DNA from: a virus
Taxonomy: Duplodnaviria; Heunggongvirae; Uroviricota; Caudoviricetes
Length of the DNA: 13,230 nucleotides
Virus record (IMG/VR): IMGVR_UViG_2695420589_000016
Strand: one strand, 5' to 3'
Shown: positions 1 through 13,230 of the stretch, one piece after another
How positions within the stretch are numbered: position 1 is the first letter of the stretch
How the letters are laid out: each line of letters opens with the position of its first letter
Translations under genes and position numbers: made by a program
The notes under the pieces: model-generated
Told to the model about the DNA's origin: nothing
Databases searched by the model: none
Seen by the model: the letters and a program-made list of their open reading frames with translations, nothing else

Positions 1-261
1 TTAATTCTGAGGTAAAGGCAAGCTCATCTGATTGTTTCCCCTGTGTGAAGCTGGCAGATCATGCCACGGGATATCTTCTGAAGAGTGAACGCCGGAGGCG
101 TGTTTTGATGTGAATTTATGGAAAGCTTCCAGTGTTGAGAAGCATACGCCGCATTCCAGATTGTTACACTGGTAATACTTTTGCCGCACGGTGTTTGAAT
201 CATTTTCCGGACGACTGGTGCGGATACGGGCAGATGCGCCACAAAGCGGACAACGGAACAT
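1..261 (-). CDS. ogr: Ogr/Delta-family zinc-finger late-gene transcriptional activator
   Basis: 86-aa ORF, ATG at 261-259, TAA at 3-1. SD GGGAGG (minus strand of 267-272) lies 5 nt upstream. N-terminus MFRCPLCG...YYQCNNLECG gives C4-x2-C7-x24-C32-x4-C37, the four-cysteine zinc finger of P2 Ogr / 186 Delta. Lies downstream of gpD on the same strand, as ogr does in P2. Confidence 0.85.
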   Translation of the reverse strand: MFRCPLCGASARIRTSRPENDSNTVRQKYYQCNNLECGVCFSTLEAFHKFTSKHASGVHSSEDIPWHDLPASHRGNNQMSLPLPQN

Positions 262-291
262 AGCGACCTCCCTTAACGTAGTGCAGGGGCT

Positions 292-320
292 ATTCTAAGT
301 TGTTCTGGCTCATACTCCAA
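292..320 (-). promoter_or_regulatory. Candidate sigma70 promoter for ogr (-35 TTGGAG, 17-nt spacer, -10 TAGAAT on the minus strand)
   Basis: Minus-strand hexamers read from plus 315-320 (ctccaa) and 292-297 (attcta). The -10 matches TATAAT at 5/6, the -35 is weak (3/6). Position is about 30 nt upstream of the ogr start. Motif match only. Confidence 0.2.
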
Positions 321-369
321 CAGCCAGTCCGTTTCGAGCGAAAAGCGGTGATTTAACTCTTGAAGAAAT

Positions 370-397
370 AGGCTTTGATACGATTTATCCAAAGCCT
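370..397 (-). terminator. Possible intrinsic terminator downstream of gene X (8-bp stem AGGCTTTG/CAAAGCCT, 12-nt loop)
   Basis: Perfect inverted repeat 370-377 / 390-397. On the minus strand it is followed by a moderately U-rich stretch (AUUUCUUCA). It lies between the gene X stop (505) and the ogr start (261). Weak, because the stem is AT-rich. Confidence 0.25.
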
Positions 398-504
398 GTA
401 AAAGATTGGAATGTTTTTTATCCTGTCATCTATTTTGGGAAAAGATCAGGAAATAGTTATGCACTTATAGATTTACTATAGCATTGTATTATTTGAGTAC
501 ACCC

Positions 505-2007
505 TCATGTTTTGATTTGTGCGCTAATAGAACTTTTCTGTCTTTTCTTCTGCTCTTGAATGTATGTCTGCACCATTTCTGTTATGGTTGAAAATGCACT
601 ATGTTCTTCTATAGTTATTTTTAATTTAAATGTTTTAATGACCGGATTGGTAAGGTTATTTGCATCAACTCTCACCTCAATTGCACCATTCACTTTCTTT
701 GGTTTGTTGGCTGTATATACGAACAACGGGAATATTTCTTCTTTGACTTGATGACGCCACTCTTCGCATTCCAGCGATACAACTTGAACTGGCTCATTTC
801 TCTTTTCTTTATAATAAAAATCGTTTTTATCCCTTTCTGTTGGAGTAAGAGATAACAAAGGACCAATTTCTTTTGAAATTATACTGGATAGCGGTGTTTC
901 CAAAGCTCCCCCAGCGTAAGGCATTCTTTCTGTTACGCCACATACACTACGCCATTTTCCTTTGGGGGCGGTAGGGGCTGAAGGTAGGTCAATCCTTTTG
1001 CTTTCAGTCAGCTCTTCCATTATCTCCCAATTAAATCCACACAGACGAAAATCTCCTTTTGCTGTAAATGTTACCACAGCACGTTCAGCGATAGTATAAC
1101 CTGTGTTTTGTAATAAAAACGACAGCGGGTAATTTATTGCCTTCGGATTAATATGAGTATGACAGTTTTTCAGTATTTCTTCACACTGCTTTTTCCAAAG
1201 TGGATAATGTTTTTCTTTATAAAGAGAAATATCATCTGCTGATACAGGGAAATACTCCTGTTGACTAAATGACTTGATGATTTTTTCTAGTGATTGTGGG
1301 GTAGTTTGTTCATTGTCAAAGTTTGTAACCAATGGGAATGCATCCGTTAGTTGACAAAGCAAATTATCAACTTCATATTCAGATAAAGCTGTATAATAAG
1401 GAAGTACAATATTTAATTGCTCGTCATCGGCTACTTTAATGCTGAAATCGGGCATAGACTGAGTGAATTGCTTCAGCTTAGCTTCCAGCAATTTAATTTG
1501 TTTATCCTTTTCATCTGGCTCAGCAGGAAGCAACCATGAAGAAGGCACTTTATAGCAGATTATATTATGTTTTATTGCTGAAAAACGTGGACCGCTATCA
1601 TTGGTAATGATTGCCACCTCCGAATCTGGATCGTCAGCGCAATACCCTGCCGCAATACCAACAAAACGATCGTCGGCCTCCTGATAATCCAATTGTTCAG
1701 ATAACTGTTCACATGGTTTCAGGCTTAGATCCATGGTAAGAAAAACTCGCGGCGAGCGTTCACGAATAACAAGAGTCATGTCAGTTGAATCAACTACTTG
1801 ATTAAATAGGCTAGCAGCCTTCCTTGCTTTTTTGGATAGGCGGGAATTACCTTGCCCTTTCTGGCGGTCAATCTCTTGCTGAATGGGCCTTGTAATAATG
1901 ATACATACTTCATCACAAGCAGTAATCTCGGAAAAATTTACCTGCGTCAAGTCCTTGCATTGTAGAAAAATGTTTGAGTCTGGGAATAAATACAGCTTTT
2001 TGTTCAT
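505..2007 (-). CDS. Hypothetical 500-aa protein with PIN-like N-terminal nuclease domain and uncharacterised C-terminal region; candidate prophage-encoded defence/abortive-infection protein
   Basis: Long uninterrupted ORF, ATG at 2007-2005, TGA at 507-505. SD GAGG lies 5 nt upstream (minus-strand TTGAGGTTTGAATG). Residues 1-155 show a PIN-like pattern of conserved acidic residues: D10 in LYLFPDSNIFLQ, E/D in IQQEIDRQ, an acidic cluster in YCADDPDSEV, and T-x-D in VAIITNDSG. A K/E-rich predicted helical stretch sits around residues 165-180. The C-terminal ~320 aa contain nothing I can assign. Confidence 0.8.
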   Translation of the reverse strand: MNKKLYLFPDSNIFLQCKDLTQVNFSEITACDEVCIIITRPIQQEIDRQKGQGNSRLSKKARKAASLFNQVVDSTDMTLVIRERSPRVFLTMDLSLKPCEQLSEQLDYQEADDRFVGIAAGYCADDPDSEVAIITNDSGPRFSAIKHNIICYKVPSSWLLPAEPDEKDKQIKLLEAKLKQFTQSMPDFSIKVADDEQLNIVLPYYTALSEYEVDNLLCQLTDAFPLVTNFDNEQTTPQSLEKIIKSFSQQEYFPVSADDISLYKEKHYPLWKKQCEEILKNCHTHINPKAINYPLSFLLQNTGYTIAERAVVTFTAKGDFRLCGFNWEIMEELTESKRIDLPSAPTAPKGKWRSVCGVTERMPYAGGALETPLSSIISKEIGPLLSLTPTERDKNDFYYKEKRNEPVQVVSLECEEWRHQVKEEIFPLFVYTANKPKKVNGAIEVRVDANNLTNPVIKTFKLKITIEEHSAFSTITEMVQTYIQEQKKRQKSSISAQIKT

Positions 2008-2042
2008 TCAAACCTCAACTATGTCAATGGTGTTAGATTAAT

Positions 2043-2070
2043 ATAATAATAGTTATCAATTGGTTATCAA
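2043..2070 (-). promoter_or_regulatory. Candidate sigma70 promoter for gene X (-35 TTGATA, 16-nt spacer, -10 TATTAT) overlapping a TTGATAA-N4-TTGATAA direct repeat
   Basis: Minus-strand hexamers read from plus 2065-2070 and 2043-2048, both 5/6 to consensus, placing a transcription start about 30 nt upstream of the ATG at 2007. The heptamer TTATCAA occurs twice on the plus strand (2053-2059 and 2064-2070), separated by TTGG. Confidence 0.3.
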
Positions 2071-2232
2071 AGCATGATTCTTACCACCCCTGATGTCAGG
2101 TAGGAAAACACCATATGTTTCTGCTCTGTTTTTCCTTAGAAATAGGCATCCTTGCTGGAACAAAGCGAGCAGCTATATTGACTCTATGTTGTGAGTGTGT
2201 TGATCCGTTCTGAGTTAATACATTTAAGTTGC

Positions 2233-3342
2233 TCACTCTGTTTCTGCTATCCATTCCGGGATTTTTGCCTCAAGCTCAAGCTGCGTGGTAAAGCCGCTGT
2301 TATCAATGGTGTGCTCGGCTTTTGCAATAATCCAGTCCTGATTATCAATCTCGCTTTTAAATCCTGTTACCGTGCCATGCATTTCGGGGTAGAGTTCTGC
2401 ACGTCCATGCGCCAGTGTGATGGAGAATGATGCGGCTCCGCGTTGTAGCTGCTGCCACTTTGCCGCCGCTGCACGTCTTGCTGCCTGCTCGTTCTGATAA
2501 GTTTTGCGTAACACAAACACGTTGCCTTCCGCACCTTCCATATAGTCGCCTTCCCGGCTGCTGCTTTTCTCCTTTTTTGGTTTTGACGGTTTGCGGCGTT
2601 TCACGCTGACTTTTTTCTTTTTCCCGTAATTAAGATCAAGCCAGTAAGCGCGTACCCCCGTATACGCTTCGCGGTCAGCAATGCGGAACTGATGGCGATC
2701 GCCGCTGCTGCGTGTGATGGCGAACGAGGGCAACGGCTGGCCCTGTGCGTTCACGCCACCACCGGGCATGATGAATAACAGATTACCGCTTTTTACCGTG
2801 GTGATTGCGCCCAGCATTTCCGCCATGCGCGTAAGGAAGGACATGTCGCTTTCTTCGGTCTGGTCGGCGTGGTCGATTTCGATATCCATCAGCATTTCGC
2901 TGATTTGCGGTTTCAGACCATACCGATGAGCGATGGCGGATACCACACGCTCAACGGTCACATCATGCCAGGACACCTCACGTTTAACGTTAAATTCAGC
3001 CCGAAAATCTGCGCTTCTGGCTGAAACAGTCAGCCTGTCCGGCGGTCCTTCGTGAGCGATTTCATCAACAATGTAAGTGCCTTTTTCTGTCAGCGGTTCT
3101 CCCTTCCAGCCAATGAGAACCGTCAGGCGCGCGCCCCGTGGCGGTAGCTGCAACTGACCATCCGCATCATCCAGCGTGATGGTGAGCTGGTCCGCCTCAA
3201 ATCCCCGGTTGTCGGTCAGTGACAGGCTCATCAGGCGCTCTGCCACGCCTGACAGCGTTTTACCCTCCGCGAGAATATCAAAATCCGGCATTTTCACGGG
3301 GTCTGTGCCCTGACTGAGCAATTGCATGGTGGTGTCGGTCAT
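2233..3342 (-). CDS. D: Phage late control gene D protein (gpD, tail/baseplate hub)
   Basis: The ORF is open from 3474, but I place the start at the ATG at 3342-3340 (MTDTTMQLL...) because it has a strong SD GGGAGGG 6-7 nt upstream, whereas the ATG at 3474 has none and would sit 25 nt from the divergent FI start. Size (369 aa) and position next to ogr fit gpD. Family assignment is from recollection of gpD-like proteins, not a search. Confidence 0.7.
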   Translation of the reverse strand: MTDTTMQLLSQGTDPVKMPDFDILAEGKTLSGVAERLMSLSLTDNRGFEADQLTITLDDADGQLQLPPRGARLTVLIGWKGEPLTEKGTYIVDEIAHEGPPDRLTVSARSADFRAEFNVKREVSWHDVTVERVVSAIAHRYGLKPQISEMLMDIEIDHADQTEESDMSFLTRMAEMLGAITTVKSGNLLFIMPGGGVNAQGQPLPSFAITRSSGDRHQFRIADREAYTGVRAYWLDLNYGKKKKVSVKRRKPSKPKKEKSSSREGDYMEGAEGNVFVLRKTYQNEQAARRAAAAKWQQLQRGAASFSITLAHGRAELYPEMHGTVTGFKSEIDNQDWIIAKAEHTIDNSGFTTQLELEAKIPEWIAETE

Positions 3343-3499: not shown

Positions 3500-4684
3500 A
3501 TGAGTGAAACTCGTTTTCATGGTGCCCGTGTTACGGAAAATACCGACCTGGTAACAGCGATTAACGATGTTGATTCCAGCGTTATCGGTATCGTGGCAAC
3601 GGCGGATGATGCGGACGCGGAGCTGTTCCCGCTGAACAAGCCCACACTGCTGCCCCGCGTCAATGACGTGCTGGGAAAATGCGGAACAACGGGGACGCTT
3701 TATCGTGCGCTTAAGGCCATCGCAGACCAGGTGAGCACAAAGGTGATCGTCGTTCGCGTGGCTGAACACAAAGAAGAAGACGGAAAAACGCAGGATCAAC
3801 TGGTTATCGGTGGTTCTGAATCTGACGGCAGCTATACGGGGATGTATGCGCTGCTTGTTGCAGAGCAGGATGAAAGCATCGGATACCGTCCGCGTATTCT
3901 GGCCGCGCCGGAGCTGGACACGGAGGCGGTGACAAAATCCCTGTGCGTGATTGCGGGTAAACTGCGCGCGTTTGTGTATGCCTCATGTCATGACTGTAAC
4001 ACGATGGCTGAGGCAATTACCTACCGCCAGAAATTCAACGAACGTGAGGTGATGCTCTTATGGCCGGACTTCATCGCCTACAACCCGAAAAGTGGCAAAA
4101 ACGAAACGTTCCCCGCGCCTGCCTATGCGTGCGGCCTTCGTGCGTACATTGACCATGAGCAGGGCTGGCACAAATCGCTGTCCAACGTTCCGGTTAAAAA
4201 TGTGCTGGGGATGTCCAGGCATGTGTTCTGGTCGTTGCAGGCCGAAGACAGTGATGCCAACAGCCTCAACAACAAAGAAATCACGACCATTATTCGTCGC
4301 AACGGGTTCCGCTTCTGGGGCAACCGCACACCGGAAACGAACGCCTACATCTTTGAGGTGTATACCCGAACCGCACAGGTGCTGGCTGATTCAATTGCGG
4401 AAGCGCAGTTTGAAACCATCGACAGTCCACTGACGCCTGCGAACGTGAAGGATGTTATCGGTGCCATCAGGGCAAAACTGGATTCACTGGTTACTGCCGG
4501 GAAACTGATTGGGGCGTCGTGCTGGTATGACGTGGTGGATAACGGCACCACGAATTTACGTCAGGGGCGCGTGCGTATTCGCTACAAATATACGCCTGTT
4601 CCCCCGCTGGAAGACATGGAGCTTTACCAGTCGTTTACTGATGAATTCTTTGGTCCCGCATTTGCGGTGCTGGGAGGTGCCTGA
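3500..4684 (+). CDS. FI: Contractile tail sheath protein (gpFI)
   Basis: 394-aa ORF, ATG at 3500, AAGGGG upstream. Size and sequence character match myovirus tail sheath (P2 FI is about 396 aa). Its stop overlaps the FII start (ATGA at 4682-4686). Confidence 0.9.
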   Translation: MSETRFHGARVTENTDLVTAINDVDSSVIGIVATADDADAELFPLNKPTLLPRVNDVLGKCGTTGTLYRALKAIADQVSTKVIVVRVAEHKEEDGKTQDQLVIGGSESDGSYTGMYALLVAEQDESIGYRPRILAAPELDTEAVTKSLCVIAGKLRAFVYASCHDCNTMAEAITYRQKFNEREVMLLWPDFIAYNPKSGKNETFPAPAYACGLRAYIDHEQGWHKSLSNVPVKNVLGMSRHVFWSLQAEDSDANSLNNKEITTIIRRNGFRFWGNRTPETNAYIFEVYTRTAQVLADSIAEAQFETIDSPLTPANVKDVIGAIRAKLDSLVTAGKLIGASCWYDVVDNGTTNLRQGRVRIRYKYTPVPPLEDMELYQSFTDEFFGPAFAVLGGA

Positions 4685-5196
4685 TGGCTGTACCAAAACA
4701 TCTTCGCTTTTTTACGCTGTTTGTGGATGGTGAAAACGAAGTGGGTAAGGTGACGTCCGTCACTCTGCCTAAGCTGACGCGCAAAACCGACAGCTACCGG
4801 GGTGGTGGCATGATGGGAGCGGTAAGTATTGATCTCGGCCTGGATGACTCCGCGCTTGATGCGAGCTTTGTCATGGGGGGCGCAGTTCGTGAGCTGTTCC
4901 TTAAGTATGGCGGCACGATTGACGGTACGCTGCTGCGTTTTGCGGGTGAATACTACACCGACGCTGAAAGCGACCTGTATGAAGTCGAAATGCGCGGACG
5001 TGTGACGGAAATTGATATGGGGGAAGCCAAACAGGGCGAAGCCACATCACACACTTACGCCATTAAAAACACCTACTACAAGCTGAGTGTTAACGATCGC
5101 CCGTTGTGGGAGATTGACCTGCTGAACTTCATTTACCGGAAGGACGGCAGGGACATTGTGCCCGATCGCATCCGTTCCGCGCTCGGGCTTGGCTGA
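4684..5196 (+). CDS. FII: Tail tube protein (gpFII)
   Basis: 170-aa ORF translationally coupled to FI. Size and position match the P2 tail tube protein (about 172 aa). Confidence 0.9.
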   Translation: MAVPKHLRFFTLFVDGENEVGKVTSVTLPKLTRKTDSYRGGGMMGAVSIDLGLDDSALDASFVMGGAVRELFLKYGGTIDGTLLRFAGEYYTDAESDLYEVEMRGRVTEIDMGEAKQGEATSHTYAIKNTYYKLSVNDRPLWEIDLLNFIYRKDGRDIVPDRIRSALGLG

Positions 5197-5250
5197 TAAG
5201 TAATATGCAGGCGGCGCAGTGCGTCGCCTCTGACTGAAAGGAGTTTCCTG

Positions 5251-5616
5251 ATGAAAGAGACGAAAAACATCGATACCGAAAACACGGTCGTTGCTGACAC
5301 TGTGAAAGAAACCAGTGAGCGTGGCGTAAAACTTACCCAACCAATTGAGCGAGGCGGCGAAAAAATCACGTATGTGGAGATCACCGGGGCTATTGAGCAG
5401 GCTGGATCTCTGCGAGATTTGTCGCTGTCTGATGTGCTGAATTTGAAAGCGGAATCCATGTTTACGCTGCTGTCACGCGTGACATCACCGCGACTGGATG
5501 AAGTGACGATCAAAAAAATGGCATCCCGTGACTTTATTCAGTTATGTGTGGTTGCCGTAAATTTTTTGAGCGGTGCGGACTCTGGCGAGAAGAACGAACA
5601 GGCGACGGAAGCCTGA
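5251..5616 (+). CDS. E: Tail assembly chaperone gpE (zero-frame product)
   Basis: 121-aa ORF, ATG at 5251 preceded by AAGGAG. Sits between the tube and tape-measure genes, the conserved position of the tail chaperone, and contains the slippery heptamer near its 3' end. Confidence 0.8.
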   Translation: MKETKNIDTENTVVADTVKETSERGVKLTQPIERGGEKITYVEITGAIEQAGSLRDLSLSDVLNLKAESMFTLLSRVTSPRLDEVTIKKMASRDFIQLCVVAVNFLSGADSGEKNEQATEA

Positions 5617-5780
5617 TCACGGTTGTGTGCTTTGAGCACATAGAAGACTTTGTGGCGGATATTGCCGCCATTTTTAACTGGTCGCCCGCCGAAATCTTCA
5701 TGATGACGCCCGGCGAAGTGGTTAGCTGGCGTGAGCGGGCGGCACTTCGCAGCGGGAATGCAGACAATGAAGACTCTTGA
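5251..5780 (+). CDS. E': Tail assembly chaperone E+E' (-1 frameshift fusion product)
   Basis: The E frame up to the slippery site at 5562-5568 joined to the -1 frame ORF ending at 5780. This conserved two-frame chaperone arrangement precedes the tape-measure gene in P2 and most long-tailed phages. Confidence 0.65.
5562..5568 (+). other. Programmed -1 ribosomal frameshift slippery heptamer T_TTT_TTG (E to E')
   Basis: The heptamer is in the X_XXY_YYZ register relative to the E frame (codons AAT TTT TTG = N F L). The -1 frame is open from here to the TGA at 5778-5780. Confidence 0.7.
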
Positions 5781-8718
5781 TATCCGGGTCGCTTNNNNNN
5801 NNNNNNNNNNNNNNNNNNNNNNNNNNNNNNNNNNNNNNNNNNNNNNNNNNNNNNNNNNNNNNNNNNNNNNNNNNNNNNNNNNCCGCCTGATGGGGCAGTT
5901 TGGTGACTCCATCCAGCGAACGCAGGGGGCGATCAAAAATCTCGAGCGTCAGGCGCGTTCATTTGAGCGCGCCCGTGACGCTGTCAGTAAAGCGGATGCG
6001 GGCATCGTGAAAGCACGACGCCAGCTTAACGCCCTTAATCAGTTACAACGCACGGGTACAGTGCTCAGCGAAAAACAACAAAAGCTGATGCAGCAGTTAA
6101 GCACCCGGCTTGAACGCCTGAATGAATCGCGCACACGGGAAATTCAGAAAATGCGGGAACTTGGCGGAGAGCTGAAACGCCACGGCATTTCCCTGACAGG
6201 CAGCGATAACACCATCCAGCAGGCCATCAGACGCACCGGACAATACAACAACCAGCTTGAACGCGAACGGCGGGCGCTTGCGCGTGTAACGCAGGCGCGT
6301 GAGCGGTATTCACGCGCGCAGGAAACAGCGGGAAAACTGAAAACAGGTGGTGCGCTGGCAACAGGTGCGGCGGCAGCGGGCGGCTATGCTGCCGGGCGTT
6401 TTTTGCAGCCCGCTATCGGGTTCGGGAAAGAGATGTCCCGTGTTCAGGCACTGACGCGAATCGATAAAAACAGCCCGCAGTTTAAGGCGCTGCGTGAGCA
6501 GGCGTTAAAACTTGGCTCTGAAACGCAGTTCACCGCAGGCGATGCCGCCAGTGGACAGGCATTTCTTGCAATGGCTGGTTTCACACCGCAGGCCATTCAG
6601 GCTGCGCTTCCCGGCGTGCTGAGCATGGCAACGGCTGGCGGTATGGACCTCGGCGAGACGGCGGATATTGGTTCCAATATCCTGACGCAGTTCGGCCTCT
6701 CTGCTGACCAGATGGACCGGGTCGGTGACACACTTACCGCAGCGTTTACCCGTACCAACACTGACCTTCGCGCACTGGGCGAAACCATGAAATATGCAGG
6801 TCCGGTGGCGGGTAAGCTGGGAATATCGCTGGAGCAGGCCGCAGCGATGGCGGGCGTGCTGGCGAAGATGGGTATCAGGGGGAGTGATGCAGGTACAGCG
6901 TTGCGTAAAAGCCTGGCCAATCTGTCATCACCGCCAAAGGCAGCGGCAGAAGCACTGAAAGAGCTGGGGGTGTCAGTTGCTGACGCCAAAGGCAAAATGC
7001 GCCCGATGGAGAATGTGCTGGCCGATCTCTATAAAGCCACCCGCAAATACGGGGAGGTTGACCGGGTATCGTTCTTTAAGGACATTGCCGGAGAAGAGGC
7101 TTTCACATCATTTATGGGCCTCGTTGATGCGGCAGGTGACGGCNNNNNNNNNNNNNNNNNNNNNNNNNNNNNNNNNNNNNNNNNNNNNNNNNNNNNNNNN
7201 NNNNNNNNNNNNNNNNNNNNNNNNNNNNNNNNNNNNNNNNNNNNNNNNNNNNNNNNNNNNNNNNNNNNNNNNNNNNNNNNNNNNNNNNNNNNNNNNNNNN
7301 NNNNNNNNNNNNNNNNNNNNNNNNNNNNNNNNNNNNNNNNNNNNNNNNNNNNNNNNNNNNNNNNNNNNNNNNNNNNNNNNNNNNNNNNNNNNNNNNNNNN
7401 NNNNNNNNNNNNNNNNNNNNNNNNNNNNNNNNNNNNNNNNNNNNNNNNNNNNNNNNNNNNNNNNNNNNNNNNNNNNNNNNNNNNNNNNNNNNNNNNNNNN
7501 NNNNNNNNNNNNNNNNNNNNNNNNNNGGGAAGCTGGCTACGTTGCGTCTCGGTTTTTCTCTCCTGACCGAATCAATGAATGTTGTCAGGGTTCTGCCTGC
7601 ATTATGGGGAATNNNNNNNNNNNNNNNNNNNNNNNNNNNNNNNAATGGTGACGGGTTCCGTTTCTTTACTTGGTGGCGCTATCGGGGCGCTGTTCAGTCC
7701 GGTTAGTCTTATCGTGGCTGCGCTTGCCGGAGCTGCCGTTCTTATCTGGAAATACTGGGATCCCATCAGGGCATTTTTTGCCGGGGTGTTCAGCGGGATT
7801 ATGGAAAGGCTGACCCCGTTGCGCGAAACCTTTGAACGGTTTGGCCCTGTTTTTGATGTCGTGCGCGATGGGATTATTCAGGTCTTTAACTGGTTTAAAT
7901 CGCTGCTGTCACCGATGGAGTCCAGCAAGGAAACGCTGGATAAATGTGCCAGTGCTGGCGAGATATTCGGTAACGTTCTTGGCGGTGCGTTACAACTTGT
8001 TCTGACACCTGCAAAAATGCTACTGGATACGCTGGCGTGGATACTTGAAAAACTTGGCGTCCTTCCGGATGAAGCGGAAAGGGCGCGCAAGAAAATCGAA
8101 GACGCACAGCGTGCGGCCATTCTTCAGGACAAGGTTGCCTTGCTTCAGGGGAACCTGGCGAAAATCAATCCGCCGAAGCCTGTGGAAAATGGCAATGGCA
8201 CCGGAGGTGATAAACCCAAAGACAACAAACCGCTCACAGACAGCAATACCGGGACGCTACGCAGACTCAGCAAAATTGCTGATAACACAGGTAAGCTGGT
8301 TGATGAGACGAAAAAACGCATTGGCCCCGGCGATATTGTCTTTAAGAACCTGCCCCGCGCACTTGCTGTTCGTGGGGAGTGGCAGGAGCGGAAGATTGCG
8401 CAGGTCAGTAAGCCTGCCCCCGCAATTAATATCACACCCGTGGTCCCGGCTCCGCTGCCTCCGGCGCTGGTCCCTGTTGTTGCGGCCAGCTCCCGCCCGG
8501 TGGCGGAGGCCATACGCTCTCCAGTGGCATCAGTTCCTGTAACTTCCCGTAACCGGGAGCCTGTTGCCTCCGGATTTGGTGGTGAAATTCATGTTCATCT
8601 GCATAACGTTGTTACGCAGAATCCCCGCGAACTGGCGAAACTGGTCGGTGAAATGGTCAGGGCAGAAATGGAACGGCGCGCCCGTGCCGGGCGTGGCAGT
8701 TTTTACGATAAAGATTGA
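5767..8718 (+). CDS. T: Tail tape measure protein (gpT), interrupted by three N-runs; length and continuity uncertain
   Basis: ATG at 5767 (MKTLDIRVA) overlaps the E' stop. The N-terminal part is coiled-coil-like; the central part has the Gly/Ala-rich tape-measure core (GGALATGAAAAGGYAAG..., AGGMDLGETADIGSNILTQFGLS..., GIRGSDAGTALRKSL...). The C-terminal part runs 7645-8718 (MVTGSVSLLGGAIGALFSP...) with TGA at 8716-8718. N-runs at 5795-5882, 7144-7526 and 7613-7643 fall inside the gene. Confidence 0.75.
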
Positions 8719-8730
8719 GGAGTCATGGCC

Positions 8731-9219
8731 ATGATGATGATCTACGGCATGTTTGTTTTTGAGCTGCGTACATTGCCGCATCAGCAGTTACAGCAAAACA
8801 AAAGCTGGCGGCATGTGAAAAATGAACGCGTTAACCGTTCGGCAAGCTGGCAGTATATCGGTGCAGGTGATGAGCGCATCGTTCTTTCTGGTGTGCTTTA
8901 TCCTGAAATTACAGGTGGCGAAGTGTCGCTGTCGCTGCTGACCACGCAGGCGTATACAGGACGACCCTGGCCTCTGATTGATGGCGTCGGGCAGATTTAC
9001 GGCATGTATGTCCTGACCGAAACGAATACGACCCGCTCCGAGTTTGATCGCTACGGTAAGGCGAAAAAGATAGAATTTTCACTGACTCTTGAACGCTGTG
9101 ATGAGGATTTGCGGGAGCGCCTGCAATCCTCATCGTTCAGCGATATGCTGTCCGGCTTCAAAGATAAGGTAACATCATCCCTTAACAGCGCGGCCAGTTC
9201 AGTTAAAGGGTTGTTCTGA
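8731..9219 (+). CDS. U: Tail protein gpU
   Basis: The ORF is open from the ATG at 8725, but SD GAGGAG (8717-8722) is only 2 nt from it, so I prefer the ATG at 8731 or 8734 (MMMIYGMFVFELRTLPHQQ...). About 160 aa, directly after T, as for P2 gpU (about 159 aa). Confidence 0.8.
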   Translation: MMMIYGMFVFELRTLPHQQLQQNKSWRHVKNERVNRSASWQYIGAGDERIVLSGVLYPEITGGEVSLSLLTTQAYTGRPWPLIDGVGQIYGMYVLTETNTTRSEFDRYGKAKKIEFSLTLERCDEDLRERLQSSSFSDMLSGFKDKVTSSLNSAASSVKGLF

Positions 9220-9230
9220 TTTAACACAAA

Positions 9231-9267
9231 AACCGCTAATGGTCAGATTAGCGGTTATTTTGTTTCC
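9231..9267. terminator. Bidirectional rho-independent terminator between gpU and the invertase gene
   Basis: Perfect 10-bp inverted repeat AACCGCTAAT (9231-9240) / ATTAGCGGTT (9247-9256) with a 6-nt loop, flanked by an A-run upstream (9224-9230) and a T-rich run downstream (9257-9267). It lies between convergent genes. Confidence 0.55.
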
Positions 9268-10096
9268 TGACTCTTCTCTATTGTTCCGATTGATTCTCCT
9301 GCGGGGTGGTAACGATAAATCGTCGATATACCAATGCCGTAAATTATTGCCAGTTGTTTTCTGTCGTGCCCGTTTTTGATCAGCCTTGCTATTTGCTCAT
9401 GCTGTTCTTTTGTCAGCTTCGGTCGACGTCCGCCTGTGCGCCCCCGTGCGCGTGCTGCCGCCAGTCCGGCCAGTGTACGTTCAACAATTAATTCACGTTC
9501 CATTTCAGCCAGGGCACCCATCACGTGGAAGAAAAAACGCCCCATTGGAGAAGATGTATCTATGCTGTCGGTCAGACTGCGAAAATTAATTCCTCGCTCC
9601 CGTAGTTCCCCGACGAGAGAAATCAGATGTTTCATGCTTCGCCCGAGGCGATCCAGTTTCCNNNNNNNNNNNNNNNNNNNNNNNNNNNNNNNNNNNNNNN
9701 NNNNNNNNNNNNNNNNNNNNNNNNNNNNNNNNNNNNNNNNNNNNNNNNNNNNNNNNNNNNNNNNNNNNNNNNNNNNNNNNNNNNNNNNNNNNNNNNNNNN
9801 NNNNNNNNNNNNNNNNNNNNNNNNNNNNNNNNNNNNNNNNNNNNNNNNNNNNNNNNNNNNNNNNNNNNNNNNNNNNNNNNNNNNNNNNNNNNNNNNNNNN
9901 NNNNNNNNNNNNNNNNNNNNNNNNNNNNNNNNNNNNNNNNNNNNNNNNNNNNNNNNNNNNNNNNNNNNNNNNNCCTGTCCTTGTTCCGCTTAATTTATCT
10001 TCAAATATTTGTTCATATCCTGCACAAACAAGAGCGTTTCGTTGCAGGTCTGTATTCTGGTCATTTGTTGANNNNNNNNNNNNNNNNNNNNNNNNN
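9255..10096 (-). CDS. Serine DNA invertase, Gin/Cin/Pin/Hin family (internal region masked by N-run; start inside N-run, approximate)
   Basis: C-terminal part 9255-9661 reads (W)[62 protein letters not shown]...GRRPKLT... and the N-terminal fragment 9974-10069 reads [32 protein letters not shown]. Both closely resemble phage Mu Gin and e14 Pin as I recall them, including the catalytic-serine region VSTNDQ. The start codon is predicted about 8 codons upstream of the visible fragment, inside N-run 10072-10194. Confidence 0.85.
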
Positions 10097-10194
10097 NNNN
10101 NNNNNNNNNNNNNNNNNNNNNNNNNNNNNNNNNNNNNNNNNNNNNNNNNNNNNNNNNNNNNNNNNNNNNNNNNNNNNNNNNNNNNNNNNNNNNN

Positions 10195-10211
10195 ACCTCG
10201 GTTTACGAGAA
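10195..10211. other. Partial invertase crossover site (gix/hix-like), left half lost in N-run
   Basis: ACC-TC-GGTTTACGAGAA at the first unmasked bases after the N-run. It matches the recalled gix core ...AAACC-TC-GGTTTACAGGAA at 10 of 12 positions in the right half-site, and sits next to the invertase 5' end, as gixR does next to gin in Mu. Confidence 0.45.
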
Positions 10212-10970
10212 CTCGGCACAAGCGGGGAGAAAATACCGTTACTCAGTACAGCGAATACCTGGACTAATCGACAAACATTCAGCGGTGGCCTTTCTGGTGA
10301 ACTATCCGGCAATGCTTCTACAGCTGCAAAATTAAAAACTGCCAGGAAAATAAGCAATGTGGCTTTTGATGGTTCCTCCGATATCACATTAAAAGCAAGT
10401 CATGTTGGTGCGTTTGCCTTAGGGAAAACAGGAAGCACCGTTGCGAATGATAAAGCAGTTGGATGGAACTGGAGTAGCGGAGCCTATAACGCAACTATTA
10501 GTGGTGCATCAACGTTAATTATTCATTTTTATATGGGAGAAGGAAGTTGTCCTGCAGCTCAGTTTCGGATTAATTATAAAAATGGCGGTATTTTTTATCG
10601 TTCAGCCCGTGATGGTTATGGTTTTGAAGCCGACTGGTCCGAATTTTACACCACCAGAAAACCTTCAGCAGGAGATGTTGGTGCACTGCCGTTATCTGGT
10701 GGTCAACTGAATGGTGCACTGGGTATCGGAACATCCAGTGCTCTTGGCGGTAATTCGATTGTATTGGGTGATAATGACACGGGCTTTAAACAAAAAGGCG
10801 ATGGTAATCTGGATGTTTATGCTAATAACGTCCATGTTATGCGCTTTGTCTCCGGAAGCATTCAAAGTAATAAAACCATAAATATTACGGGACGTGTTAA
10901 TCCCTCGGATTACGGTAACTTTGATTCCCGCTATGTGAGAGATGTCAGACTTGGCACACGAGTTGTTTAG
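10197..10970 (+). CDS. Alternative tail-fibre C-terminal variable segment (Sv'-like), no own start codon, ended by an in-frame TAG
   Basis: The frame is open from the crossover site and encodes ...TANTWTNRQTFSGGLSGELSGNAS...[23 protein letters not shown]. The GNFDSRYV(R/K)DVRLG motif is shared with the intact fibre segment on the minus strand (12214-13230). Expression would require inversion to fuse it to the constant part of the fibre gene. Confidence 0.6.
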   Translation, partial: LGLRELGTSGEKIPLLSTANTWTNRQTFSGGLSGELSGNASTAAKLKTARKISNVAFDGSSDITLKASHVGAFALGKTGSTVANDKAVGWNWSSGAYNATISGASTLIIHFYMGEGSCPAAQFRINYKNGGIFYRSARDGYGFEADWSEFYTTRKPSAGDVGALPLSGGQLNGALGIGTSSALGGNSIVLGDNDTGFKQKGDGNLDVYANNVHVMRFVSGSIQSNKTINITGRVNPSDYGNFDSRYVRDVRLGTRVV

Positions 10971-11120
10971 ACCATGAAGAAAGGCGTGATGTATGAAAAA
11001 TCAGGCCATGTAATCACGGGGCTTGGTATTATCGGTGAAGTCGATGGTGATGATCCGGCAGTATTCAGACCAATACAAAAGTTAATTAACGGAACATGGT
11101 ATAACGTATCGCAGGTATAA
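10971..11120 (+). pseudogene. In-frame continuation of the Sv' fibre segment after the TAG, encoding the conserved fibre C-terminus (49 codons)
   Basis: Same frame as 10197-10970. Encodes [49 protein letters not shown], colinear with the C-terminus of the minus-strand copy (...[43 protein letters not shown]). Its TAA at 11118-11120 is 2 nt before the tfa' start, mirroring the coupling of the other copy. Confidence 0.55.
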
Positions 11121-11122
11121 TC

Positions 11123-11656
11123 ATGCAGCATTTAAAAAACATTGTCGCAGGTAATCCAAAAACCGTTGAACAATACCAGCTAACAAAGAATTTTGATGTT
11201 ATCTGGTTATGGTCCGAAGATGGAAAAAATTGGCATGAGGAATTAAAAAACTTTCAGGAGGATACAATAAAACTGGCTTACACAGTTGAGGGAATAATTA
11301 TTGCTATAGACAAGGATGTATCAGCAATTAATCCAGAAGGTTTAAGTGTCGTTGAGTTGCCTGATATTACAGCAAATCGCCGGGCTGATATTTCGGGCAA
11401 CTGGATGTTCAAAGATGGTGCGGTGATAAAGCGAACTTATACCGAGGAAGAGCAAAGGCAACAAGCGGAAAATGAAAAGCAGAGCCTGCTGCAGCTCGTC
11501 AGGGATAAAACCCAGCTGTGGGACTCTCAGCTACAGCTGGGCATCATTTCCGATGAGAATAAACAAAAATTAACCGAGTGGATGCTCTATGCGCAGAAGG
11601 TTGAATCCACAGACACCTCCAGCCTGCCAGTAACGTTTCCCGAACAACCAGAATGA
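11123..11656 (+). CDS. tfa: Tail fibre assembly protein (Tfa, chaperone for the Sv' fibre segment)
   Basis: 177-aa ORF, ATG at 11123. N-terminus [20 protein letters not shown]... and ...[34 protein letters not shown]... are typical of the Mu U / P2 G / E. coli TfaE family and paralogous to the minus-strand tfa. Confidence 0.85.
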
Positions 11657-11661
11657 AACAA

Positions 11662-11689
11662 GGCCCGATATCGGGCCTTAATTTTTACT
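11662..11689. terminator. Bidirectional terminator between the convergent tfa genes (perfect 16-nt palindrome GGCCCGATATCGGGCC plus T-run)
   Basis: The palindrome at 11662-11677 is followed by TTAATTTTTA on the plus strand and by a U-rich stretch on the minus strand. It sits between the tfa' stop (11654-11656) and the tfa stop (11685-11687). Confidence 0.55.
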
Positions 11690-12212
11690 CAGGCTTTTGT
11701 GGCCATTCTGGCTTTGCCGTATCCACACGGCTGACCAGAACACTGTAGCGTTCCCATGCTTCCAGTCGTGTGCGTTCCTCGTCTGTTGCCATATTCAGCC
11801 TGACAGCGCGTTCCAGCGGCTGGATGACTGATTCAGCTTCGGAAAGCAATGCGGCCTTTTGTGATTCGGCCTGTTGTTGCTGTTCGTCAGCCGTATAAAT
11901 CCGTTTAACCACAGCTCCGTCCTTAAACATCCACTTACCGGAATCATCAGCACGACGATTAGCTGTAATATCAGGAACCTCAACGACGCTATAACCTTCA
12001 GGGTTAAGCGTGGAGGCATCTTTGGTGATGGCGACAATAATATTATTTGCATCGTAAACAATCTTTATTGTGTCTGGCTGAAAGTTCTTCACTTCCTCAT
12101 ACCAGTTTTTTCCGTCCTCAGAGTAAAGCCAGATGACTCCGTGCTTCTTTGTTAACTCATACTGCTCCACTGTTTTAGCATTACCTGCTTTTATGTTCTT
12201 TAAGTGCATCAT
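11685..12212 (-). CDS. tfa: Tail fibre assembly protein (Tfa, chaperone for the currently expressed fibre segment)
   Basis: The ORF is open from 12245, but the homologous start [20 protein letters not shown]... is the ATG at 12212-12210, 1 nt after the fibre stop codon (12216-12214). The sequence parallels the plus-strand Tfa throughout (...[33 protein letters not shown]...). Confidence 0.85.
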
Positions 12213-12213
12213 A

Positions 12214-13230
12214 TTAAATACTCGCCACATTATACCAAGTGCCATTTATATACTTTTGCACTGGCCTGTAATGAACGCCTGCAATATTATCGGCAGAGTT
12301 TTTTCCGGTATCCTGTACGTTAATCCCCGTCAGTACATAGCCTGACGGGCACTGAAAATTCCATGTTTGCCAGTTGTTCACTCCATAATATTGCTGTGAA
12401 CCAAGTCGAACATCTTTCACATATCTGGAATCAAAATTGCCATAGTTGCCGGGAATAACTTGCGAGCCGCAAAGCCAGTTCCCGTTATTATCCATGTACG
12501 CCTGACCATCGGTGCCATTGGCTGTCCTTGAGTTATTAATCATGTAGATGCCAAATTGCTTATTTCCCAGACCGCCAATCATAAATTTGCGGTCGGCATG
12601 GTCCTGACGGAGCAAAGCCTGAGCACCATCAGTGGATACCGCATTACGTCCCAAAATAACATTCTGGTCACGCATATGAATCCACATGCCGGTACTACTG
12701 TTAATTGCAAAACGGTTTGCAAATATATCCCCTGTAACATCAAGACCATGCCCCATGCTTATCCGGCCAGTTCTGAGATTAAGCGTAAAGGGGCGTAGTG
12801 GCCCTATATTACCATTTTCCCCTTCATTCTCTCGTGTAGGGATGATATGCAGGCATTCTTCAGAACGACGAAAAATGGCACCAAAAGATGAATTAAATAT
12901 CCTCAGTGCATTGACTGTCGATATTTTCACTTCACTGCTGAAAAGGGCTTCAACAAGAACAGACAAAGCATTCCATTTAAGATTCATCAGGTCTTTAGGC
13001 CGGGTGCCAATGATGCGGTGTCTCCATTTGAAATATTCATTGCCGTTGTTGCCTGTTTCAAACCACATGTAGGAATCGGTGTCTGCATCCGAATTATTTT
13101 TAAACCCAATCTTTGCCCAGTCAGTATTTCGAATCCAGGCAAGGATTGAGTCGTTTTCAAAAGTAAGTCCACCGGACAACGTATCGCCATTTTTTTGCAC
13201 GGCGTTACCAGCCTTGTTTACCGTTTCCTG
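12214..13230 (-). CDS. Tail fibre protein, C-terminal receptor-binding portion (gene continues past the window end)
   Basis: The frame is open from the window end ([26 protein letters not shown]...) to TAA at 12216-12214. It carries the [14 protein letters not shown] motif and the C-terminus ...[19 protein letters not shown]. The ORF tool's M at 13200 is a GTG inside the open frame, not the true start. Confidence 0.8.

Follow-up and report, generated by a model that had tools for sequence, protein, structure and literature searches.

What is encoded by the AT-rich gene that separates gpD from ogr in the P2-like prophage of IMG/VR record IMGVR_UViG_2695420589_000016, and what does it do for its carrier? 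The question was addressed on a stretch of 13,230 nucleotides from this record, and the whole of it is called the window in the following. By all the sequence and predicted-fold criteria tested, the protein is a PIN_4 family member, in which an N-terminal nuclease domain precedes a C-terminal module that defines a large family. The gene is carried by a self-contained, foreign, AT-rich single-gene cassette of 1.8 kb that is mobile among P2-family phages and other elements. The function that we favour, with moderate confidence, is that of a single-protein PIN ribonuclease which defends against phages or other mobile genetic elements by abortive infection and is carried on a prophage moron.

The gene is located on the minus strand (505..2007). 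It is an open reading frame (ORF) of 1,503 nucleotides with an ATG start, coding for 500 amino acids, and its product is WP_001035742.1 in RefSeq, labelled 'PIN domain-containing protein'. Given the local base composition, 500 open codons would occur by chance with a probability of about 3e-16. A Shine-Dalgarno sequence, GAGG (2013..2016, minus strand), is found 5 nucleotides before the ATG and is kept in the Rahnella homologue described below. On either side lie two conserved flanking genes, ogr, encoding the late-gene activator (1..261, minus strand), and gpD, encoding the late control or tail protein D (2233..3342, minus strand). The initial annotation, which a model had made from the letters of the sequence, had seen a 1.5-kb ORF with a good Shine-Dalgarno sequence between gpD and ogr, and in this it was right. 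Its description of the region as AT-rich stands as far as the contrast with the neighbouring genes is concerned. The GC content is 38.3% in the ORF and 37.9% in the insert defined by comparison with the empty D-ogr junction of a sequence type 131 (ST131) prophage (303..2221, no strand assigned), versus 53.8% in gpD and 54.1% in FI; at third codon positions, it is 32% in the inserted gene versus 59% in the flanking genes. The hand count of 32-37% GC given with that description was, however, slightly low.

The N-terminal domain comprises residues 1-160 (1528..2007, minus strand). The Pfam PIN_4 profile (PF13638) matches residues 10-151 with an E-value of 4.5e-8 and 33.9 bits, the gathering cut-off being 21.9 bits, and distant members of the family also pass this cut-off. 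In an alignment of 44 sequences, D10, E45, D112 and D137 are invariant or near-invariant, and their sites match the metal-ligand positions of PIN domains. The DEDD tetrad is kept in 155 of 165 full-length representatives, the exceptions being eight N-terminally truncated gene calls and two substituted sequences. As judged from these alignments, strict purifying selection maintains the four predicted metal-binding acidic residues throughout the family. With the 44-sequence alignment as input, AlphaFold2 gave a full-length model having a mean predicted local distance difference test (pLDDT) score of 86 and a predicted template modelling (pTM) score of 0.55; residues 1-160 exceed a pLDDT of 90 and follow the beta-alpha-beta order of PIN domains. 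The best Foldseek matches in the Protein Data Bank (PDB) were the PIN domains of SMG6 (2hww), Nmd4 (8rdd), DIS3 (6d6q_K) and AF0591 (1o4w). The PIN-like N-terminus proposed by the initial annotation is thus recovered both as a fold in the predicted structure and as a profile match above the Pfam cut-off. Three of the four motifs that had been quoted for it do carry conserved acidic residues, namely LYLFPDSNIFLQ (D10), IQQEIDRQ (E45 and D47) and VAIITNDSG (D137). By contrast, the remaining motif, YCADDPDSEV (residues 122-131), falls in a loop that varies, and the third conserved acidic site lies instead at D112/D113 in EADDRF.

PIN_4 has been placed in the VapC-like group together with SMG6 and PhoH2, and the characterised members listed there are RNA nucleases (Matelska et al., PMC5499597). 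By analogy, the N-terminal domain is likely to be a metal-dependent endoribonuclease. The window protein has in common with nucleases of the PIN_4/VapC-like type (SMG6, Nmd4, DIS3, PhoH2) the PIN_4 profile, the four acidic residues and the best structural matches. It differs from PhoH2, SMG6-type proteins and VapC in being devoid of a PhoH ATPase, of a eukaryotic nonsense-mediated decay context and of a VapB antitoxin, respectively. A fusion of the PhoH2 type (PIN_4-PhoH) was considered and set aside, as the C-terminal P-loop ATPase was not found; the C-terminal fold is a beta-sandwich, and no Pfam domain beyond PIN_4 is present. Unlike in other PIN_4 proteins, the PIN domain is joined here to a module of 340 amino acids that is restricted to its own family.

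This C-terminal module (residues 161-500; 508..1527, minus strand) is predicted to contain a coiled helix, a small alpha/beta subdomain, a long helix, a beta-sandwich holding a disordered loop (residues 357-388), and a C-terminal helix. When residues 161-500 were modelled alone, a pLDDT of 86 and a pTM of 0.75 were obtained. A Pfam scan of 14 divergent C-terminal modules (E<=5) gave no match that recurred consistently, a PDB sequence search with the full-length profile (A1) returned nothing significant, and structure comparison of the module with BFVD gave no specific match. In the 165 representatives, ten residues of the module are 100% invariant: Y263, W271, N301, G303, P345, P348, C414, R418, H419 and N451, which map to approximately 655-1221 in the window. 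It follows that the module would possess its own functional site, constrained as much as the nuclease site. C275, H283, C414 and H419 form a CHCH quartet in 149 of the 165 representatives, C275 and H283 being replaceable; from the sequences, this quartet may be a site for a metal (zinc) or another ligand. From the beta-sandwich fold of the model, we infer that the module acts as a sensor.

How widespread is this combination? A profile of the C-terminal module was compared with 1.84 billion cluster representatives, and 1,555 proteins were recovered at E<=1e-3, of which 725 also passed E<=1e-30; each of the 1,555 family members stands for a cluster at 50% identity. Nearly all members are about 500 amino acids long with the module starting at about residue 160, and the longer ones that were checked keep PIN_4. 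Such uniformity of length and of module position argues for a fixed two-part architecture rather than for a promiscuous sensor domain. One protein of 745 amino acids (P0060) was examined as a possible case of the module on another effector. It has an O-antigen-ligase-like membrane N-terminus followed by a truncated C-terminal module. It appears to be a chimera or a miscalled ORF from a metagenome, and was set aside. In a species-level genome scan, the family was found in Alpha-, Beta-, Gamma- and Deltaproteobacteria, Chloroflexota (many of them Dehalococcoidia), Planctomycetota and Acidobacteriota, as well as in Gemmatimonadota, Verrucomicrobiota, Latescibacterota and others, at least ten phyla in all. 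A few members are plasmid-borne. In a neighbour-joining tree, the window protein sits in an enterobacterial clade, all members of which are cargo of mobile elements.

The mobility of the gene is best seen in Rahnella, where a homologue with 73% amino acid identity is located at the gpS-gpV junction of a P2-like prophage. The two copies share 78% nucleotide identity across window positions 325-2149, non-coding flanks included. As the flanks are shared between the S-V and D-ogr sites, a discrete cassette has been inserted at two junctions, and horizontal acquisition is demonstrated directly. The proposal of the initial annotation that the gene is a horizontally acquired moron is thereby confirmed. 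Other homologues occupy the gpA-gpQ (old/tin) hotspot, in Enterobacter, beside an AAA_21 ATPase, and in an IMG/VR contig; one is at the G-FI (Z/fun) hotspot, one lies beside the int gene of a 186-like prophage and one is at a prophage edge. In total, relatives occupy five different junctions in genomes of the P2/186 family. Apart from these, one homologue is found in an element carrying an integrase and a type IV secretion system (an integrative and conjugative element, ICE), another adjoins a Gabija-like pair of AAA_15/21 and UvrD genes, and others are in chromosomal islands with VapC or transposases. No conserved partner gene was found, the neighbours differing in all 10 annotated contexts, and the gaps to the flanking genes can be as small as 36-44 bp. 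The gene thus displays the features of a P2 moron: variable presence between core genes, alternative cargos at the same place and a deviating base composition.

These data bear on the idea that the protein serves the prophage itself, as an RNase for transcript processing, late-gene control or lysogeny maintenance, with no part in immunity. The gene is co-oriented with the late genes D and ogr and stands between them, and PIN_4-PhoH2 proteins are found in phages (PMC5499597). However, the gene is missing from most otherwise near-identical prophages, and it occurs at five unrelated P2-family positions as well as in an ICE, in restriction-modification (R-M) operons and in chromosomes of many phyla. 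A service to the prophage is for these reasons very unlikely. The initial annotation had envisaged that a clear match to a structural or regulatory phage protein might turn up; none was found in PHROGs, in deposited phage genomes or in BFVD.

Within E. coli, the flanks of the cassette were found in 1,457 of 5,426 complete genomes and the entire window in 57. The cassette itself is present in 59 of the 5,426, mostly O111 Shiga toxin-producing E. coli (STEC), in copies that are all at least 99% identical and single, with the ORF intact. Could the gene be a decaying or inert passenger with no current function? Its clonality in E. coli would agree with this, and AT-rich DNA may be silenced by H-NS. 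On the other hand, the ORF is intact in 59 of 59 genomes, and strong purifying selection acts on two separate sets of residues across 165 divergent representatives, so that inertness seems extremely improbable.

The D-ogr junction was also surveyed in 27 related E. coli prophages, sampled at even steps. D and ogr are adjacent, about 40 bp apart, in 18 of them, and other inserts are present in the remaining 9. The gene is accordingly variable at this site and not conserved there, as the initial annotation had supposed. The nine alternative inserts encode a GmrSD_N-HNH protein, a DUF3800 protein, a SEC-C-motif protein, an alpha/beta hydrolase, a protein with a weak HEPN match and three unknown proteins, two of them apparently identical, the last insert being IS30. 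These alternative cargos are single genes, mostly with no PADLOC match; the HEPN_RiboL-PSP match is below threshold and two cargos have no Pfam match. Cargo hotspots of P2-like phages, including gpA-gpQ and Z/fun, have been described (Rousset 2022, PMC9122126; PMC13586616; bioRxiv 2024.10.15.618418), and these three sources mention neither ogr nor the D-ogr junction as a hotspot. The D-ogr junction may therefore be an unexplored source of candidate defence genes. Beside it, a side observation can be made: every related E. coli prophage that was inspected has a Hok/Gef family toxin gene just past ogr, where the prophage ends by ihfA. It would be a second small cargo or a stabilisation gene at the end proximal to the attachment site, beyond position 1 of the window.

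Why should such a gene be defensive? It resides at sites where defence genes accumulate, the type I R-M loci and the Abi, Fic and ThsB-TIR neighbours of its relatives described below among them, its PIN site is intact and it moves as a single-gene unit; these three properties together argue for a defence role. A precedent exists in DS-3, a validated single-protein PIN defence of E. coli that acts with no antitoxin and is lost in catalytic mutants (DefensePredictor, PMC13092281). The following mechanism may be envisaged. The PIN domain would be an endoribonuclease dependent on Mg2+ or Mn2+, held inactive by the C-terminal module in the uninfected lysogen. The module would sense a cue of infection, which could be a phage protein, a nucleic acid or a perturbed host complex, and would recognise it via the invariant surface formed by Y263, W271, N301, C414, R418, H419 and N451. 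Activation would lead to cleavage of RNA (tRNA, rRNA or mRNA, of the cell or of the phage). Translation would then be arrested, the infecting phage aborted and the population hosting the prophage protected.

Several points weigh against this reading. The gene is probably defensive, the proposed role being deduced from genomic association (guilt by association). PIN toxins also act as addiction modules. In E. coli, the 59 genomes reflect a near-clonal single acquisition, so that this species alone shows no gene turnover, and a tblastn search of 50,697 deposited phage genomes gave no match. No family of PADLOC-DB v2.0.0 was matched at E<=10, nor was there a match in NCBIfam; in PHROGs, the only match was weak (residues 442-488, E=0.0027), to a PHROG with no assigned function. 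The C-terminal fold is a generic beta-sandwich, so that 'sensor' stays an interpretation of the fold, and the mutual orientation of the PIN and C-terminal domains is uncertain, as indicated by the pTM of the full-length model. The promoter and terminator candidates presented below are consensus-level calls. Finally, the members of the family embedded in R-M operons form a single subclade, and the corresponding cases are consequently not independent events.

The doubt concerning addiction modules can be developed into an explanation of its own. The protein would be a selfish addiction toxin, a long VapC-like RNase with the fused C-terminal module as an intramolecular antitoxin, and would play no role against other phages. 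Members of the PIN_4/VapC group are classically toxins of toxin-antitoxin (TA) modules (PMC5499597), the gene is invariably located on DNA that is mobile or variable, and it co-occurs with VapBC, AbiEii and MNT modules. However, post-segregational killing requires a labile partner, which a single stable polypeptide does not have, and the searches for a conserved ORF or RNA beside the gene were negative. In addition, the hotspots visited by the gene otherwise house defence genes, and DS-3 provides the case of a validated single-protein PIN system that defends its host with no antitoxin. On balance, we regard pure addiction as improbable. Membership in the VapBC type II TA systems themselves was also examined and rejected. 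The PIN fold and its residues are common to both, but VapBC toxins measure about 130-150 amino acids. The window protein, at 500 amino acids, is three to four times longer, has no adjacent antitoxin gene and belongs to a family whose neighbours are not conserved, since they differ in 10 of 10 annotated contexts.

Another explanation comes from the genes found next to more distant relatives. A census of 103 ORFs directly beside the gene, in 53 species-level loci, contained 9-10 HsdS and 5-6 HsdR, as well as AbiEii, MNT nucleotidyltransferases, Fic/PDC-S04, ThsB-TIR and WYL proteins. When Hsd proteins of one locus were used in tblastn searches, type I R-M genes were detected near the gene in 21 of 60 species-level loci. 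In about 18 of the 60, the order is hsdM, hsdS, the gene, in some cases other inserts, and hsdR, all on one strand and with gaps of sometimes 4-50 nucleotides. In the neighbour-joining tree, the R-M-embedded members form one large, deep-branching subclade; although this removes the independence of the cases, it also means that the linkage has outlived a long divergence. No hsd gene was found near the window copy, and the enterobacterial relatives likewise have none adjacent. As a side observation, the embedding R-M systems themselves (about 20 loci, L024-L077) have HsdM proteins 73-84% and HsdR proteins 68-85% identical to those of locus L006, their hosts being from different phyla. A single conserved Hsd lineage across phyla suggests horizontal transfer of the entire operon with its embedded genes. 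One Dehalococcoidia contig carries two divergent copies of the family 56 kb apart (L046 and L048), one embedded in an R-M system and the other not.

This arrangement recalls the logic of PrrC. PrrC occupies the hsdS-hsdR position in the EcoprrI locus, and the anti-restriction protein Ocr is the trigger of PARIS, a system of the P2/P4 hotspots. In a comparable manner, the family could consist of guard nucleases linked to R-M, monitoring the type I enzyme or anti-restriction proteins, with an RNase that fires when restriction is neutralised. The prophage copies would then guard the resident type I system of the host in trans. The position between hsdS and hsdR on the same strand, with gaps that are sometimes only 4-50 nucleotides, in about a third of species-level loci, and the persistence of the association through a deep subclade are consistent with such a role. 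They have to be set against the fact that neither the window copy nor any of its enterobacterial relatives lies next to hsd genes, that type I operons often gather unrelated TA and Abi genes (locus L006 also has three VapC genes), and that there is no likeness in sequence or domains to PrrC or RloC. As an account of the window gene, guarding of R-M is unlikely.

A broader proposal on the history of the family may nevertheless be put forward, though it remains doubtful. The family would be a widespread, uncatalogued immune nuclease that was originally a built-in second line of type I restriction, a PrrC-like guard made from different parts. In the ancestral hsdM-hsdS-[PIN]-hsdR operon, the invariant C-terminal site would monitor the state of the restriction complex or else capture phage anti-restriction proteins, and RNA cleavage would be let loose once restriction is disarmed. 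The enterobacterial clade, to which the gene of E. coli O111 belongs, would represent a form emancipated from this arrangement and carried by P2-like prophages.

Comparison with known systems helps to place the single-protein defence that we favour. PrrC combines an ABC-ATPase-like N-domain with a distinct C-terminal anticodon nuclease domain. Like PrrC and RloC, which are latent RNases of the abortive-infection type, many members of the family use a site between hsdS and hsdR, where PrrC is found; the domains, by contrast, are unrelated, and the window copy is not beside an R-M system. Membership in the PrrC/RloC group was thus discarded: Pfam and NCBIfam searches revealed neither the ABC-ATPase-like nor the anticodon nuclease domain, and the window copy is not between hsdS and hsdR. 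Among the cargo genes of P2, old, tin and Z/fun resemble the window gene in being low-GC, variably present single genes among core genes, whereas the window protein is unrelated to Old, Tin and Fun. DS-3 and DS-5 are, like it, accessory PIN genes of E. coli, and DS-3 follows the same proposed logic of a single protein with no antitoxin. In DS-3, which has 340 amino acids, the PIN domain is split, and DS-5 belongs to PIN_12 and requires a second gene (PMC13092281). Identity with either was tried and rejected, BLASTP giving E>1, that is, no detectable similarity. In the text of the DefensePredictor supplement, as far as it was accessible, neither the accession nor peptide strings of the window protein appear (PMC13092281). 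The opinion of the initial annotation that no named defence family could be assigned is borne out, the protein having no family in PADLOC v2 and being unrelated to DS-3 and DS-5. It therefore fits a class that is already known, that of prophage-borne single-protein nuclease defences. In PADLOC v2, NCBIfam, PHROGs and the literature searched, no description seems to exist of the family, of its C-terminal module or of the D-ogr cargo site.

Predictions of comparable defence candidates now run into the thousands, and a role of PIN effectors in defence is already established. Were the gene defensive, the known immune nucleases would gain a large single-protein family of broad phylogenetic range, and with it a regulatory module of 340 residues that has no Pfam family and brings a second, absolutely conserved site. 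The D-ogr junction would then be a further cargo site of P2-like phages, occupied by mostly unannotated single genes, and would merit screening. The recurrent placement between hsdS and hsdR would link restriction systems to a back-up RNase in a concretely testable manner. The gene may also shape the phage susceptibility of E. coli O111 STEC, including towards therapeutic or Stx-converting phages. Should defence prove not to be its role, the gene would still illustrate cleanly how one cassette hops among five junctions within a single phage family. It is well suited to experiments because its family is broad, the second site is invariant and embedding in type I operons recurs.

As for the cassette itself, the 78% nucleotide identity with the Rahnella copy delimits a unit (325..2149, minus strand) composed of about 140 bp of 5' flank, the coding sequence and about 180 bp of 3' flank. 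The non-coding 3' flank (325-504) is 84% identical between E. coli and Rahnella, above the 78% of the coding region. A sigma-70-like promoter candidate, TTGATA-16-TATTAT, with 10 of 12 consensus matches, is located inside the cassette (2043..2070, minus strand); sigma-70-like sites are no more numerous in the region than expected from shuffled sequence. A candidate terminator, consisting of the hairpin GGCTTTG...CAAAGCC and a T-rich run, lies inside the conserved 3' flank (362..397, minus strand) and has a fold z-score of -1.2. Both candidates thus fall in flanks conserved with Rahnella. Two small ORFs were considered as hidden antitoxins and rejected. One, of 39 codons with a TTG start (273-392, minus strand), spans the edge of the cassette and has no Shine-Dalgarno sequence; the other, of 52 amino acids (2096-2254), lies partly beyond the conserved cassette. 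No convincing conserved small ORF or RNA was detected in the flanks, and an Rfam search of them returned no RNA family.

The neighbouring genes call for some further remarks. In O111 genomes, RefSeq/PGAP annotates gpD as a 266-amino-acid 'contractile injection system protein, VgrG/Pvc8 family' plus a partial hypothetical protein; the gpD frame of 369 codons is unbroken in the window, and the ST131 annotation is full-length. The tail block FI-FII-E-T-U (3500-9219, plus strand) is inverted with respect to D and ogr (1-3342, minus strand) and to the canonical P2 order, so that D and FI diverge from an interval of about 157 bp. O111 strain 11128 shows this arrangement too, as does a P2-like prophage from a metagenome (L014). 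According to a preprint among the papers on P2 hotspots, an invertase of the Z/fun hotspot often comes with inverted adjacent genes. Masked runs of N at about 5800-5940, 7100-7610 and 9640-10200 break the tape-measure gene, an invertase gene and a tail-fibre gene. The invertase fragment, of the Hin/Gin type, is at 9255-9635 (minus strand) and is masked beyond. It is followed by two divergent paralogous cassettes, each made of a tail-fibre C-terminus and a tail-fibre-assembly gene, at about 10200-11656 (plus strand) and 11685-13200 (minus strand). Inverted repeats of 64-186 nucleotides, 71-75% complementary, are found in these cassettes, and the whole region 9255-13230 looks like a host-range switch resembling the G segment of Mu.

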